Of a DNA stretch of 61,412 nucleotides, positions 14,901-20,900 are shown piece after piece. The stretch lies in the IMG/VR virus record IMGVR_UViG_2563366956_000010. The stretch is one strand, 5' to 3'. This DNA is from a virus (taxonomy: Duplodnaviria > Heunggongvirae > Uroviricota > Caudoviricetes). How positions within the stretch are numbered: position 1 is the stretch's first letter; the number at the start of each line of letters is the position of its first letter. Position numbers: made by a program.

Positions 14901-17900
14901 CGGTATGACTCTACAGTGCCTCAAAACAACCAGGCCATTTCTGTCTTCAAGGGCATAGATCCCCTCATGAATCTCTGTATCGTCTGTATTAATCAGGACT
15001 TGGGAGCCTGGGGATATTGTTGGTGACATTAACTCATCGTTGCTCTGGAGAACTGACAGAGACGATGGGTTGATGTTCTTGCTTCGTAGAATCTCCTGTT
15101 CTATCGCCAGCACTGGCTTTTCTCCGGCGTGCGATGCTATGTCATTTTTTATAGCTACAAGCCCAGGAATAACAGGAGCGTTAGTATTCTGGGGTGGGAA
15201 CGGGTTATCTGTTAAGCACGCGATATAAGGCGCTGATGCTTTCAGGGCGTGCGCGATTTTCTTGATGGCAGGTATAGATGGTTGTCTTAATCCGGCCTCA
15301 TAGTTCTGCAAGGTGCTTAAGCCTATTCCAGTGACTTGCTGGAGATCTCCGGCAGTCATGCCGGATTGTTTCCGTAGAGTCTGAATGCGCAGACCTATTT
15401 CTTTCTTGATGTTCTCGTCGTTGCTTTTCATGTCTCATCAATCGTGAATGGTGGGTTATTTATACATTACCACATTTAGTGGTTTTCACATGGTAAGACG
15501 AGAGGTGGACCACAAATAGAAGGTTATTTTTTGTTTCGCCCATTGAAAAACTCACGATATGTGGTTTTAATACCACATATCGTGGTTTTAACTGGAGTTC
15601 GTTAAATGACCTTTCAGGAGTGGGTTGACGAAAATGGAGGCCAAATTGGTGTTGCCAGAAAGTTTGGCTTTACGTCATCACTGATTGGTGCCTGGTATCG
15701 CTTCGAGAGATTCCCTCGTGCGGATAACCTGACGCTGCTGGTGGCGTATTCGGAAGGCCGGATTAACGTCCAGCAATGGGCGGCAGATTTTGCCGAACGT
15801 CAGCGCCAGCGTAGCGATGGCACATCGGTTCGGCAGAACAAGATCAAAGGGAATCTCCCTGTTAACTGCTTATCAAGGCTGAAAGCGGTTTTCTCTGAGC
15901 TGGGGATGCCTGCGGAGCGTTGCAATCTACGCGGTCCGCGATTCATTGCTCGCTGGAAACACTCACATGTAACCGTTTCAGAGGTTCGTGATGCGATTAC
16001 CGTGCTGGAGCTTAAGAATAAAGATTCCAGCGATATCGAGCTGATTCATAAGGAGATTAGCAACGCCCGGCGTTCAGCACTTGGGAGGCTTGAGGAATGA
16101 TGATTCTGGCCTTCTTTGGTGATAATCACCAGATTCAATCGCAGGTGGTGCACTACCTTGATCAAACGATTAAAGGATTTGTTATCGATCATATTGATAA
16201 CGATAGCAAACGTCTATCTGTAGAGCAGAAAATTGGAGGTGTGCAGCGACTGGTTGCCAGCCGTAACAGACGTGACACCGTAACAGTCGTTACGGGGATT
16301 ACGGAGGTCATGGAGTACCAGATGTTGCTGCATCGTGGAGCTGTTTTCTGCGTTCTTCCTGGTATTCTGCCAGCAATTCTTGCTCGTGGTTTTGTCCCTA
16401 TTGATGAGTCGTTCTTATATGTAACCCCAAGCCGTTCCCTTCTGGATACGGAGGCGAAGCGTCGCATTTATATGATGCCGGACGAGGCATTTTCTGAATG
16501 TTACCGCCGTGAAATGAGGTTGGGTAAACGAGAAGTGTCTGTTGTTCGTGATGGCAGGTTTTTAAGAAGCCGCACGGTGAAAAGCACCAGAAATGACGGG
16601 GGCCATCAATGAGTAGTTATGTTCGCGGTGCTGCGATGCATTGCCAGAATCCCCAATTCTGGCGCTTTCTGGTCAGTAAAACAGGGAAGAACGTTTCAAA
16701 CAGTTCTGAGGCCTCTGTGATTCTGCGTGAGTTTTGCGGGATCTCATCCCGTAAAGAGCTGGCAAAGAACTACGCGGCCAGAAGCATGTATGTCCAGTTA
16801 ATCAACGAGTTCAACCTCTTTATCAATGGTAAGGGGCGCTGATGAACGGACGTACACCAACGAAGAAAGAGAAACTTTATATACAAGCGGTGCTCACTCA
16901 CGTGGGTTGCATAGCTTGCATTATTGATGGCCGTGAAATTGAGAATCCAGAGCTGTGGACGGAGCTACATCACGATCCTGATTACGGCAGCGTTGATGAG
17001 AATTGCCACTTCCATAGCTTTGGGTTGTGCGCACCACATCATCGCGGTGTTGTGCCTGGTGGTGGGCGTGTGCCTCCGCATATTGCCGTTCGTCACCCTC
17101 CCCTGAGTAATTGTGCTCGCTTTGTTGAGCGTTATGGCACAGATGAATTTTTGTGTGCGCAGACGTGGGAGCTGTTGCCGCAGTCAGTTAAAGACGAAAT
17201 TGGGTTTGATCTTAGTCTTGGTGAAGTACCAGGGGATACCAAATGAGATATACCGGCTTTCGCAAACCAGCGACAAGGAAAAGCAAATACGGCAATAAAA
17301 AAACGGTTGTCGATGATATCGCTTTTGATAGCAAAAAAGAGGCTGATTACTACTGCGAACTGAAGCTACTGAGAAAAGCTGGCCGCGTTGTGACGTTTCT
17401 TATGCAGGTGCCTTTTCATCTGCCAGGTGGTGTCGTTTATAAACTTGATTTCATGGTGTTTTATGACGATGGGACGATTGATTGTGTCGACACTAAAGGT
17501 GTGCGAACAGACGTCTACATCATGAAGAAAAAGCAGGTAGAGGCGCTTTATCCCGTCACGATACGGGAGATCTGAACAGTGAGACGCGATCTGGATAGCT
17601 TGTTTGAGCTATGGGCGCTGTGGGTGCGCAATGGCTGCAACGCCCGTAGCGGTTTCGCGTCGATGTTAGAAATGATGATGGTTACGCGCTGCCAGTTTAC
17701 CGGAGGGGGCGGCGCACCAAATGACTCACTGGAAACCAGTATAGAGGGAGCGGTGACGGCCCTCACGGTAGTTGATGAGACTGCGGCGCTGGTTGTCCGA
17801 ATTGAATACGGGGCGTGGGAGATTCGGGGCCTCGACATAAATGCACCGCATATTGATAAAGCCCACGCCCTTTCTCTTAGCCTCAGACAGTATCGCCGGA

Positions 17901-20900
17901 AGCTGGCAAAAGCCAGGGCGTATGTTGTCGACTATTTGAAAAAGCGAAGAGAGTAAAAGTGTCATTTTGAGCTGTTTTGATGGTGTGTAGACATCGGGAA
18001 CATCGAAAATCTATAAATATATAATTATAGATTTATATAAAAAGTGCTTTACAGGTGGGAAAAAATTTCCTATGGTTATACCCGAAACCGAGCGATACCC
18101 GCCCTGGTTAAACCGGAGAAATCTGATGAATAAACAAGTAATTATTTCTGACTGGATCAACAACCCTAACAGCCTGTTAAGCACTGATACTGGCTACCTA
18201 TTACGCCATGTTAATGGTCGTATGGTCAAAAGCGATGAGCACGAAACCTTTTTCTTTGTTGAAGACGATGGGCGTATCTATGAGGATGGTTACTCTTATG
18301 AAGCCCAAACTGGTTGTATCCCTGCGGAGCTGGTGGATGTAACAGAAGATCTGCGCAAAGCATGGCTTGAACAGCAGCAGCGCGGAGATGATTACGTAAA
18401 CACCTATCAGGAACGCCAGAACGCGCGTCTTGCCCGATATATTGCTCGTGCAGAAAAAGCCAGAAAAGAAGGTGCGGTAGCGCATAAGCGAGCGCATGAC
18501 CTGTTGGATGTGATCCCGTTAGGCCAGCCGATTTTAGTTGACCATTATAGCGCGAAAGGCCATCGCCGCCGTTTGTCTAAAGCTGATGCGTTATTCAGAA
18601 AAGCGTTTGTTGAATGCGAAAGTAAAGCATCACACTACGAGAGCAAAGCCGCAGGTGTTGGTCGTAATGGAATTTCGTCTGATGATCCTGATGCGCTATT
18701 TAAGTTGCTTCGTAAGCTGCAAGGCTGCATGAAGTCACACGTCAAAATGAAGGCCGCAAATAAGGCCATTCGCAAATACAAAAAAGACCAAATACAGCAG
18801 CTTTCTGCATTAATCGATCTCAGGTTTACAGAAAGCGAAGCCAAAGAGTTACTGGCCGGAGATTTCTGTGGGCGCATCGGATTCCCTTCATACGCACTGA
18901 GCAACAATAACGCCGAAATCAAACGACTACAGAGCCGTATTAAGGAGCTTGAATCGGTCAAGTCTGTAACAGGAGCACAGCGCGAAGAATACGACGGCTT
19001 TTCTATGGAGATAGATCCAGAGGATAACCGCATCCTGTTTTATTTCCCTGGCAAACCAGAGGCAAACATTCGTTCGCTGCTTAAATCACGCGCCTTTAAG
19101 TGGAGTCCAACCCGTAATGCATGGGTTCGCAAGATTACTCCAAACGCCCTGGCTGATGCCCGATATCTGAAAGAATCGCTATTGAAAGCCTGACAGTAAG
19201 CCTACGGCGGGATGTCTCCCGCCGTATATAGAATTATATATTTATATAAATGTATAAGGACGCCTCGACAATGAAACGCAAAATTATTAACCCCCAAGAT
19301 GTGATTAATTTCCTGACCGATCACCCATGTTCAAAAGTGGACGTAATCGCGGAGCACATTGGTGTGTCGCAGAACTCTATGCGTTGCAGACTGAGAAGCA
19401 TGGTTGCCGAAGGACAGATAACAACCAGGAAAATAAATGGTTGCCTGTACTACTCCGCTAAACCGGAATTGCCATTTGGCATGAATCCTAACTCCATGTT
19501 GTTTAACACCTTATTAGCCAAAGTTAAGCCGTTGAGAGGGGCTGTGGCATGAGCATCAAAACACATACCGGAATAATCATTACCAATGATGGTGAGAAAA
19601 AAGTGAAGTTGCGCGAGACGCCGACAACCTGGTGTGTTGGTCCGAAAGAAACATATCGCAAGGAAGATGGCCGTCGTTGTGGGGCACCACTTTCCCGCCG
19701 TCGCCTCCTTTTGAGCACGATAAAACCTATCGGGCAGGTTGAGCAACCAACGACTCCGGTAACGAAGATTTCAGACAAGAGTCTGGCAAACCTGATCGCC
19801 GATGCGGACAAGGTGCTGGAGCGGAACACCCCCGTTGCAGATGAGGAATGGTGGCAGGATTTCCGAGCCGCAATGCTAGAGCTTCAGGAACGTCGTCGGG
19901 AGGAGTTGAAGTGAGCAAGAAAAATGCCGGATGGGTCAGGCCAATGAAGGCGAATAAACATCATTATTTTAATGAAGGTGAAGTAACCAGCATTTGCGGC
20001 CGTTGGATGTATTTTGGTGATTACCGTGAGCCAGACACTTTTGAGAGTCCTGATGATTGCGTGTCTTGTCGCCGGAAATTGAACAAGGTGGCTTCTAAAT
20101 GAAAGAACGTGGTGTTGTTTTTAATGACGATATGGTTAGGGCCATCCTCGAAGGAAGGAAGACGCAGACTCGCCGACCTGTAAAAAATGTCAGGGCCGAT
20201 AACTGCCTGGTTATCCGTAAACCGACAAAGAAACGCAATGGTGTCTATACCCACGTTATGGATGCACCGGAACATGGTTTATGCCCGTTCGGTAACGTTG
20301 GTGATCGCATATGGGTCCGTGAAGCGTGGGCGATATTAGGCAATGAGGATGGTTGCAGTGTGGACTGGAACGACAACCTTTGTCGTGGCGATGAGAAGAA
20401 CGCAGCAAGGATTTATCGGGCCAGTTGTGAGCAAAAGTCTGGTGATTACGGTTTATGGTCGATACCCGATGATGCCGACTGGAAACCTCACACTGTGAAT
20501 GAAAAGTTTGATGGCGGGTGGCGTCCATCAATTCACATGCCGCGCTGGGCTTCACGTATTTTGCTGGAAATTACCGACGTGCGTGTGGAACGGCTGCATG
20601 ACATGAGCGAGGCAGATGCTAAAGCGGAAGGCGCATCTCCGGCGACGTACAAGATTACACCGCCGGAAGCTGTTTATCGCGTTGGCTTTGGTGATATCTG
20701 GCGCGGTATTTACGGGCAAGAGAACTGGCTATCTAACCCGTGGGTATGGGTAATTGAGTTTAAACGTATTCAGGGGGCAACCAGTGAGTAATTCCGCACG
20801 GCTACAGCTTGGTTTTTCACCGCTATCAAAAACCATCGTGTTGGCCAAAATGCGCGATTTAGGTGACGGAACAAAACGCCGTGTAGGCAATGATCGCGGT

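Follow-up and report, generated by a model that had tools for sequence, protein, structure and literature searches.

A compact homologue of the phage 21 Q protein and its candidate target promoters in a phage-plasmid

We have analyzed the predicted late-gene control region of an E. coli phage-plasmid in a stretch of DNA of 61,412 nucleotides, here called the window. The analysis centres on a small gene at the end of the early region and on three repeated segments, A, B and C, the first of which lies just downstream of this gene.

17579 to 17956, + strand: Q21-like gene, GTG start, 125 aa

This ORF begins 3 nt after the stop codon of a DUF1064 gene, which also carries the assignment "Holliday junction resolvase", and has a Shine-Dalgarno sequence (GGGAG) 9 nt upstream of its start. 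Before it on the same strand lie a cro-like gene (15606), two genes of unknown function, a Ref-type nuclease gene (PF16786) and the DUF1064 gene; a LexA/S24-type repressor gene (14775-15431, - strand) diverges from this operon. An earlier note on this DNA had called the ORF the terminal gene of a rightward early, nin-like operon. We confirm this and find the ORF to be real, the description being a fair one in view of the upstream gene set and the divergent repressor. The order cro-like gene, Ref nuclease, DUF1064, 125-aa ORF and then repeat A is the placement seen for Q-type genes, and the synteny around the ORF is kept in at least nine related loci. The note also had the ORF end 50 bp before repeat A; the two are indeed adjacent, but the distance from the stop codon (17956) to the repeat (18012) is 55 nt.

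The family of the 125-aa protein is annotated as hypothetical in every record found. The ORF is a full-length match to phrog_5285 (E 2.8e-58), an unnamed PHROGs family, and has 31 close homologues of equal length. The wider family comprises 130 clusters at 50% identity, with members in phage-plasmids of E. coli, Klebsiella, Yersinia, Pantoea and Vibrio, and a scan of the genome contigs for the family returned one locus only. A literature search covering Yersinia phages and Q21-like regulators of phage-plasmids found nothing. The note had proposed a search against Q-family models. A Pfam scan of the ORF itself gave no match even at E 10, neither to PF06530 (Phage_antitermQ), the family of the Q protein of phage 21 (Q21; PDB 6P18, 6P19, 6JNX), nor to PF03589 (Lambda Q) or PF06323 (Q82), but similarity to Q21 did appear at the level of the family profile. 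PF06530 is matched individually by 10 of 110 wider-family members (best E 1e-4), a PDB search with a profile of these 110 members returned Q21 chains alone (E 3.6e-5), and hhalign of the profile with the phage 21 Q sequence gave a probability of 93.4% (E 2.6e-7) over 77 columns, pairing residues 2-78 with Q21 residues 13-89. The C-terminal helix-turn-helix lies outside this alignment.

Two AlphaFold models (pLDDT 77 and 87) have Q21 structures as their top Foldseek matches, although with E values of 0.26-0.3 that are not significant. The predicted layout is an N-terminal helix (residues 5-17), a conserved segment of low model confidence (residues 23-46) that aligns with the Q21 "torus" region, and a sigma-region-4-like helix-turn-helix domain (residues 50-124), which recalls the sigma-R4-like DNA-binding domain of Q21. 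The most invariant stretch in the close family, G25...P47, aligns with the torus-forming H1-H2-H3 linker region of Q21, and a W-x-x-W helix is common to both proteins (LELWGAWV in Q21, FELWALWV here). At 125 aa it falls 37 aa short of Q21 (162 aa) and lacks the HT[loop]H insertion: the model has a plain helix (91-97), a 4-residue turn and a second helix (102-124), with nothing that corresponds to the HT[loop]H motif and its minor-groove loop. The profile comparisons place the 125-aa protein in the Q21 superfamily as a compact and divergent member, whose homology to phage 21 Q is remote but has statistical support. The missing Pfam match, the insignificant Foldseek scores and the unaligned C-terminal helix-turn-helix count against reading it as a Q protein.

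Other phage regulators offer further points of comparison. In NCBIfam the 125-aa ORF has only a weak full-length match, to the PA0613 family (NF051483; 21.3 bits, E 2.5e-4), far below the equivalog cut-off of 100 bits; 57 of the 110 family members match this model (best E 6.7e-9), also below the cut-off. PA0613 is an uncharacterised gene adjoining the holin in the R/F-pyocin cluster of Pseudomonas aeruginosa. It is of similar size (119 positions) and likewise lies just upstream of lysis and tail genes; no published function for it was found in the literature searched. From these scores the family is best regarded as a sister of the PA0613 family and not part of it. BrrG of the Bartonella gene transfer agent and GafZ/GafA are structure-level relatives of Q21 for which antitermination has been shown or proposed; they bind at a constitutive promoter and bring about read-through into capsid and lysis genes (bioRxiv 10.1101/2024.11.20.624540). 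By description they too are remote Q21-like proteins that escape sequence annotation; BrrG differs in requiring a -10-like element and in acting at one promoter with a long leader (bioRxiv 10.1101/2024.11.20.624540). The lambda Q, Q82 and N15 Q systems follow the same logic, and the order of a repressor gene and a divergent operon running from cro to Q is also that of the immB region of the telomere phage-plasmids (PMC4488713), but the proteins belong to unrelated families. N15 Q itself (gene 40, 248 aa) was considered as a relative and set aside, as it is of an unrelated family, twice as long, and not retrieved by tblastn.

The three segments are direct repeats of ~115 nt (18012-18138, 24964-25090 and 57822-57948; 96% and 87% identity) with mutually unrelated flanks, and all three copies are found in all of the at least 55 related PLSDB plasmids that cover the query. 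As the note had suggested, the repeats are promoters: each is a sigma-70 promoter cassette in which an AT-rich array of 8-bp units, a promoter of the form TTTACA-17-TATGGT with a palindrome inside its spacer, a 5'-terminal RNA hairpin, a Shine-Dalgarno sequence and an ATG follow one another.

18012 to 18043, + strand: cassette A array, four AT-rich 8-bp units, TATAAATA TATAATTA TAGATTTA TATAAAAA
18048 to 18076, + strand: cassette A promoter, -35 TTTACA (18048-18053), 17-bp spacer, -10 TATGGT (18071-18076)
18058 to 18070, + strand: cassette A spacer palindrome, GGAAA-AAA-TTTCC
18086 to 18109, + strand: cassette A leader RNA stem-loop, 5'-terminal
24964 to 25090, + strand: cassette B, with array 24964-24995, -35 25000-25005, palindrome 25010-25022, -10 25023-25028, hairpin 25038-25061 and ATG 25078
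57822 to 57948, + strand: cassette C, with array 57822-57853, -35 57858-57863, palindrome 57868-57880, -10 TAAGGT 57881-57886, hairpin 57896-57919 and ATG 57937

In cassette A the array ends 4 nt before the -35 hexamer, the stem-loop begins ~2-3 nt past the predicted transcription start (18083-18085), and a Shine-Dalgarno sequence (GGAG, 18115-18118) precedes the ATG of a DUF3560 gene (18126). Cassette B heads a unit that runs into ParB-like genes and a long block of same-strand ORFs to ~52 kb. Cassette C has a single 126-aa gene downstream, with hairpins on both sides; that it serves one gene, for which no read-through is needed, counts against a Q-type role. Between 15 and 27 kb, A and B are the only sigma-70-like sites found on the + strand. 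The -35 TTG and -10 TAnnnT are kept at 17-bp spacing in all lineages, so the promoters look self-sufficient for sigma-70.

These ordinary hexamers bear on the idea of a split or ECF-like sigma factor in which the 125-aa protein provides region 4 and another phage protein region 2. Five to six family members do weakly match Sigma70_r4_2 or Sigma70_ECF, and the palindrome half-site GGAAA presumably resembles the ECF -35 motif GGAAC. Nevertheless, the protein has a region-4-like domain alone (residues 50-124) and no region 2, the family profile retrieved no sigma chain from the PDB, and Q21 itself shows an equal resemblance to sigma region 4; we regard this explanation as very improbable.

The note had further proposed that, if the ORF is a Q-type antiterminator, the conserved leader would be a qut-like engagement site. 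This is not supported: the leader is conserved as an RNA stem-loop, kept across lineages by compensatory changes and G-U pairs, and does not have the appearance of a qut- or QBE-type DNA site. Rfam at gathering thresholds identified no known RNA family in the cassettes. A QBE-like GAGC in the leader (CCGAGCG) was rejected as a DNA site because pairing in the RNA hairpin accounts for it, the motif being the 5' arm of the covarying stem. An alignment of leaders from five lineages shows no conserved -10-like sigma-dependent pause element of the kind present in phage 21 anywhere from the -10 to the ATG; the expected pause positions, +2 to +8, read AAACCGA, and the -10-like hexamers that do occur are lineage-specific (TAAGGT in L020, GATAGT in L011). 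The phage 21 QBE is a tandem repeat, ATTGAGCA AATGAGCA, at -27 to -12 between the -35 and the -10. No tandem 8-bp QBE of this type was found in the cassette spacer, which instead has the inverted repeat GGAAA-N3-TTTCC, covarying by lineage. The absence of the HT[loop]H motif, of a tandem QBE and of a -10-like pause element counts against a Q-type protein. A MarR-like gene (19250) was considered as the source of the palindrome-binding protein and rejected, as it is missing from the other cassette-bearing lineages.

Strong intrinsic terminators separate the cassette promoters from the late genes; the two of unit B stand before genes that lead into the virion operon.

22174 to 22209, + strand: terminator of unit A, stem 22174-22201 of 11 pairs (7 G-C), T8 to 22209
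25566 to 25595, + strand: terminator of unit B, ~0.5 kb from promoter B, abutting the Shine-Dalgarno/ATG of the next gene (25619)
26265 to 26292, + strand: second terminator of unit B, abutting the Shine-Dalgarno/ATG of the next gene (26305)
44422 to 44450, + strand: terminator flanked by a 930-aa ORF and additional ORFs of the same strand

The first, which the note had placed at 22176-22206 upstream of the lysis genes, is real and ends 10 nt before the Shine-Dalgarno/ATG (22220) of the holin gene. The terminator at 26265 lies upstream of all virion genes, and the ORFs around the one at 44422 are taken to be tail genes by their size and position only. None of the four has a promoter of its own downstream: no cassette follows 44422, and between the other three and the next ribosome binding sites there is no room for a promoter. 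The late genes of the window can be reached from cassettes A and B only. The lambda-like layout that the note had described is borne out in part, in that the ORF occupies the place of a Q gene, but genes and not terminators come directly after each promoter, which also counts against a Q-type mechanism. The arrangement resembles that of phage 21, where Q follows the Holliday-junction resolvase gene (ninG) at the end of the early operon, with a sigma-70 late promoter just downstream and intrinsic terminators before the late genes; those of phage 21 lie at +3 to +50, whereas here they are 0.5-4 kb away behind promoter-proximal genes. Related loci have comparable arrangements: L024 has a terminator directly 5' of its terminase gene and downstream of a cassette, L027 has the order Q-like gene, promoter, hairpin, strong terminator and late operon, and Vibrio phage K303 has promoter, 5' hairpin, strong terminator and holin.

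Could the protein instead be an activator of late promoters, working as P1 Lpa, P2 Ogr or GafY do? It would then bind the palindrome or the array and stimulate initiation from every copy, with the terminators leaky or tuning expression. The presence of at least three dispersed, near-identical promoters (up to 4-5 cassettes in L015, L021 and L024), each directly before a gene, argues for this, as does the pause element's absence from the leaders searched; a set of scattered target promoters is what one expects of a late activator rather than of a Q protein. P1 offers a likeness, with the regulator gene directly 5' of a late promoter and many dispersed late promoters bearing a palindromic element just 5' of the -10; the palindrome here, which has its centre at about -19 and overlaps the -10, is reminiscent of the -22 element in the late promoters of P1. 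The phage-plasmid studied here also has a P1-type C4 RNA. However, Lpa is an activator and P1 late promoters have no -35, whereas the cassettes retain TTG there and look self-sufficient for sigma-70. A protein sitting on the spacer and the -10 would be expected to hinder the open complex rather than aid it, what the N-terminal part matches is the Q21-specific region and not a sigma factor, and terminators lacking a downstream promoter stand before essential genes. Lpa itself (from NC_005856) is unrelated to the family profile (hhalign 0.1%). We therefore consider activation unlikely.

A further alternative keeps the Q-type antiterminator or regulator but has it act elsewhere, at one site, with the three cassettes as constitutive modules under other factors, for example a ParG-like partition protein binding the AT arrays or a dimeric repressor at the palindrome. 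There are 8 of the 8-bp arrays in the window against 0.5 expected in shuffles. In the cassettes they lie 5' of the -35, outside the spacer; others are in the par locus (13476, 14184, 14257) and at two sites without a cassette (19227, 23823). An 82-aa ORF was tried as ParG; it has no Pfam or PDB sequence match, and the assignment comes only from its location downstream of a small ParA gene and a ribbon-helix-helix-like pattern seen by eye. No repeated cassettes accompany the family members of Vibrio phages, L027 and L031, no cassette follows the Q-like gene in L013-L016 and L021, and the tandem cassettes in L015, like cassette C, resemble terminator-flanked moron units. Against this, the window holds no alternative promoter-terminator unit as a target, the late genes have no other promoters than A and B, and every cassette-bearing lineage also has the Q-like protein. 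Action at a different single site is, in our judgement, distinctly unlikely.

Homology, the layout of promoters and terminators, and conservation in relatives together make Q-type antitermination by the Q21-like protein at several promoters the best explanation, and a probable one. Once the LexA-like repressor is lifted, the 125-aa protein would be made from the early rightward operon. Its target would be RNA polymerase starting at the three sigma-70 cassettes (A 18048, B 25000, C 57858), as compared with one target promoter in phage 21. The sigma-region-4-like helix-turn-helix may be what contacts promoter DNA, with the spacer palindrome, which occupies the same place as the QBE of phage 21 and lambda, as the leading candidate site, and the conserved N-terminal segment would be inserted at the RNA exit channel like the Q21 torus. 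Polymerase so loaded would become resistant to the terminators at 22174, 25566, 26265 and 44422, turning on the lysis, packaging, head and tail genes; in cells without the protein, the promoter-proximal genes of each cassette alone would be transcribed.

A more specific version of this mechanism, which we offer tentatively and hold to be doubtful, is that of a miniaturised Q21-type antiterminator with an undescribed loading route. Loading would need no sigma-dependent pause and would use the spacer palindrome (or the 8-bp arrays) together with the 5'-terminal RNA hairpin. It would take place at several scattered promoters, which in the plasmid state would also drive cargo genes. The arrays next to these promoters recur at the partition locus, so that late-gene control might be physically coupled to partition.

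Some of the ~47-kb E. coli phage-plasmids have resistance genes, as does the window. For this common group, assignment of the protein to the Q21 superfamily provides a testable late-gene switch. If the proposed mechanism is true, Q-type antitermination need not be confined to one promoter and would require neither a tandem QBE nor a sigma-dependent pause, which would bear directly on how Q proteins are loaded, and the compact cassette would be a ready unit for dissecting which element recruits the factor.

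The 125-aa Q-like ORF lies at 17579-17956 on the + strand. Its GTG start, served by a GGGAG ribosome site, lies 3 nt past the preceding gene's stop codon. Over its full length it matches phrog_5285 (E 2.8e-58), and 31 close homologues of equal length were found. As the earlier note had proposed, it is the last gene of a conserved early block, which consists of a LexA/S24-type repressor gene and the divergent cro-like gene, orf171, orf77, Ref nuclease gene, (DUF1064) and Q-like ORF. This block adjoins a parA/small-ORF partition pair, in an order kept in at least nine related loci. 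In phage 21 the Q gene too comes after a ninG/Rap Holliday-junction endonuclease gene. A palindrome with 14-bp arms (CACGATATGTGGT...ACCACATATCGTG) at 15552-15585, between the repressor and cro-like genes, is probably an immunity operator.

The region belongs to a common E. coli phage-plasmid family of about 47-49 kb. It is matched by 64 PLSDB plasmids, most of them at an identity of at least 99% and 61 of them predicted to be non-mobilizable, and by Yersinia phages vB_YpM_39, 41 and 44 (97-98% identity across 84-91% of a 10-kb query). The Q-like ORF is labelled "hypothetical protein" in all the PLSDB and Yersinia phage records compared. Features of the phage-plasmid and its transposon material are:

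1-40, 6057-6096, 52448-52487, 61321-61360: Tn3-family 38-bp inverted repeats
6054-6148 = 61318-61412: exact 95-nt repeat, copies 55,264 bp apart
8281-12004, 52595-53455: resolvase, Tn3 transposase and class A beta-lactamase genes
12136-12223 (-), 12248-12321 (-), 12693-12989 (+): C4 antisense RNA, isrK and ryfA (Rfam)
54684-55664: IncFII-type RepA gene
60030-61172 (-): ORF6N/pRha antirepressor-like gene, adjoining a Tn3-type inverted repeat

The phage-plasmid is a carrier of resistance transposon material. The C4 RNA and the antirepressor-like gene together look like a P1-type immI (c4-ant) module, seemingly split by a transposon.

The earlier note had suggested that the ORF might be a Q-type antiterminator. 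By itself the ORF matches no Pfam model, even at E 10, and its sole NCBIfam match, to PA0613_fam, is full-length but weak (E 2.5e-4); what stands is a remote homology to Q21, the Q antiterminator of phage 21, seen with family profiles. Searching the whole library by HMMER with a profile of the close family gave 130 representatives, of which nearly all are 105-165 aa long. The profile of 110 aligned members, searched against the whole PDB, was significant only for two phage 21 Q sequences (E 3.6e-5), the next match having an E value of 0.32. With hhalign, residues 2-78 of this profile aligned with residues 13-89 of Q21 (sequence from OL657228) at a probability of 93.4% and E 2.6e-7. AlphaFold models from 24 and 110 sequences (pLDDT 77.4 and 86.6) have identical topology, with a helix at 5-17, a low-confidence segment at 23-46 and four helices at 50-124. 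With both models, Q21 structures took the first places in Foldseek (the top four and the top eight hits, respectively), with weak scores (E about 0.3, TM 0.43-0.54). Ten of the 110 members match PF06530 (Phage_antitermQ), six Sigma70_ECF and five Sigma70_r4_2; Q21 itself has been described as sigma-R4-like, and its H2, together with the linkers on either side (H1-H2 and H2-H3), refolds to make a torus at the exit channel for RNA (bioRxiv 10.1101/651190). No stretch of the close family is more invariant than the segment aligned with the torus part (GFASMLEMMMVTRCQF.GGGG.P), which coincides with the low-confidence part of the models; this would fit a mobile RNAP-binding element. The HT[loop]H insertion of Q21 is absent from the Q-like protein. 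Overall, the ORF is very probably a remote homologue of Q. Two further candidate relatives, P1 Lpa and N15 Q (248 aa), are unrelated.

PA0613 is an uncharacterised gene adjoining the holin gene of the P. aeruginosa R/F-pyocin cluster, and no function is assigned to it in the literature found. The match of 57 of the 110 aligned members to PA0613_fam, below the family cut-off, suggests that PA0613 may be a Q21-like antiterminator too.

The three direct repeats claimed earlier are present at 18012-18138 (A), 24964-25090 (B) and 57822-57948 (C), with 96% and 87% identity and unrelated flanks. Repeat A does follow the Q-like ORF directly, at a distance of 55 nt rather than the 50 bp claimed. Each repeat is a promoter cassette of fixed order and spacing: an array of four AT-rich 8-bp units, a 4-nt gap, the -35 hexamer TTTACA, a 17-bp spacer that includes GGAAA-AAA-TTTCC, the -10 (TATGGT, or TAAGGT in cassette C), leader, GGAG and ATG. 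This architecture recurs in diverged relatives (L011-L016, L020, L021 and L024) at 2 to 5 copies per 20 kb, and their Q-like proteins are 40-93% identical. Kept across lineages are the -35 TTG, the 17-bp spacing and a -10 of the form TAnnnT. Among near-identical isolates (the window, L004-L010 and L019), the two -10 variants are distributed differently over A, B and C, which suggests gene conversion between cassettes.

Both arms of the spacer palindrome change together between lineages (TAGGAAA-ATA-TTTCCTA, TAGGACT-AAA-AGTCCTA, ATAGGTC-AAAAA-GACCTAT, TTATGCCC-TAA-GGGCATAA), a pattern typical of sites bound by symmetric DNA-binding proteins. The palindrome at 15552-15585 is unrelated to it. The spacer palindrome is centred near -19, overlaps the initial bases of the -10 and occupies the position of the phage 21 Q binding element (QBE; -27..-12). 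As a candidate loading site it is cassette-specific and rightly placed, but its symmetry is wrong for Q21. This helps to keep alive two other models, in which the Q-like protein is an activator of the cassettes or the cassettes are under the control of another protein.

The 8-bp arrays bear on the same two models. There are eight arrays of about four TATAATTA-like units in the window, against 0.5 expected in shuffles; besides those in the cassettes, the par locus has three and two further sites have one each:

13212-13460 (-): 82-aa ORF, immediately downstream of the gene for the small ParA (13504-14172)
13476-13507, 14184-14215, 14257-14288: arrays flanking parA
18012-18043, 24964-24995, 57822-57853: arrays just upstream of the cassette -35
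19227-19260, 23823-23870: arrays preceding other genes

The unit varies by lineage (GATATAAA, TAAAGATT, TTTATCAA, TTAAATAA). The period of the arrays, 8 bp, is also that of the Q21 QBE; they lie, however, at -41..-72. The 82-aa ORF is conserved along with the arrays and present in nine related loci, and the C-terminal half has a ribbon-helix-helix-like look by eye. Since it has no match in Pfam or among PDB sequences, its assignment as a ParG-like centromere-binding protein is based on position and sequence pattern; such a protein is the more likely binder of the arrays. Two direct repeats also abut the -35 in L027 and in Vibrio phage K303 (L034). These are 13-nt units (CTCAAARTGAGTT; ACCACAAAAYGAC) at 8341-8373 and 24690-24730, respectively, just upstream of a putative late promoter and with the proximal copy abutting the -35; AT arrays are absent there. 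The unit in L027 is similar to the QBE subsite of phage 21, AATGAGCA.

The leader, which had been proposed as a qut-like site, proved instead to be conserved as an RNA stem-loop and not as a DNA site. In an alignment of 18 sequences (four to five lineages), the pairing fraction is 91.6% of cells, and sliding the partner columns lowers it to 12-40%; five of eight pairs show both-sided changes, and G-U pairs are present. None of 500 shuffles reached this covariation, although independent lineages are few and the structure was derived from the same sequences. The window leader folds at -9.9 kcal/mol (z -2.55), and its stem (18086-18109) starts 2-3 nt past the predicted start site. Transcription from cassettes A, B and C is predicted to start at 18083-18085, 25035-25037 and 57893-57895, respectively. 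A hairpin stands in a similar place after the putative late promoters of L027 and K303. The leader stem-loop may stabilise the mRNA at its 5' end, act as a pause hairpin or belong to the loading signal. Cross-lineage alignments show no conserved -10-like hexamer at any point of the leader, so that there is no clear sign of a sigma-dependent pause element like those of lambda and phage 21.

The terminator predicted upstream of the lysis genes is real (stem 22174-22201 plus a T8 run). Between 15 and 27 kb the only sigma-70-like sites on the + strand are those of cassettes A and B. Downstream of A, the terminator (22174-22209) ends 10 nt short of the holin ribosome site. Downstream of B, two more terminators (25566-25595 and 26265-26292) lie directly before the ribosome sites of the genes that follow them, and both stand upstream of the entire block to about 52 kb, where promoter-like matches are fewer than in shuffles (26 vs 45). 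Another, at 44422, lies between large late ORFs. The stretch from the lysis genes to cassette B contains a tRNA gene at 23996-24068 (+), which the Yersinia phage records label tRNA-Met, with a terminator-like hairpin (24278-24308) 3' of it. In L024 a terminator downstream of a cassette directly precedes the terminase genes. L027, where the protein is closer to Q21, has the order gene, promoter, hairpin, strong terminator, then terminase, portal and capsid genes; in K303 the order is promoter, hairpin, terminator with a 12-bp stem, and holin. The Q21 homology and this conserved placing of terminators before essential late genes therefore both point to antitermination, in which the Q-like protein would work at the cassettes as a late antiterminator.

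Cassette C and the promoter-proximal genes leave room for the activator and other-protein models too. Cassette C drives a single gene, for which read-through is unneeded:

57937-58317 (+): 126-aa gene behind cassette C; phrog_8090, unknown function; hairpin-flanked

This gene looks like a moron-like unit. It is cassette-driven in four further lineages (L011, L015, L016 and L021), and L015 and L021 have four single-gene cassettes in tandem. Because each cassette promoter has a gene directly downstream, promoter-proximal genes would still be expressed without the factor, unless repression shuts these promoters off in the plasmid state. Together with the palindrome symmetry and the arrays, these points keep both models alive. 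Late antitermination by the Q-like protein at the cassettes is nevertheless the best explanation, and we consider it reasonably likely.

The dispersed centromeres of N15 link a partition protein to late-promoter control, and the arrays of this family may do likewise. Set against known Q systems, this one is new in a number of respects: the protein is smaller and not matched by the Pfam model, there are several putative target promoters, the spacer element is palindromic, the terminators are distal, and the 5' leader is structured, with no recognisable pause element.
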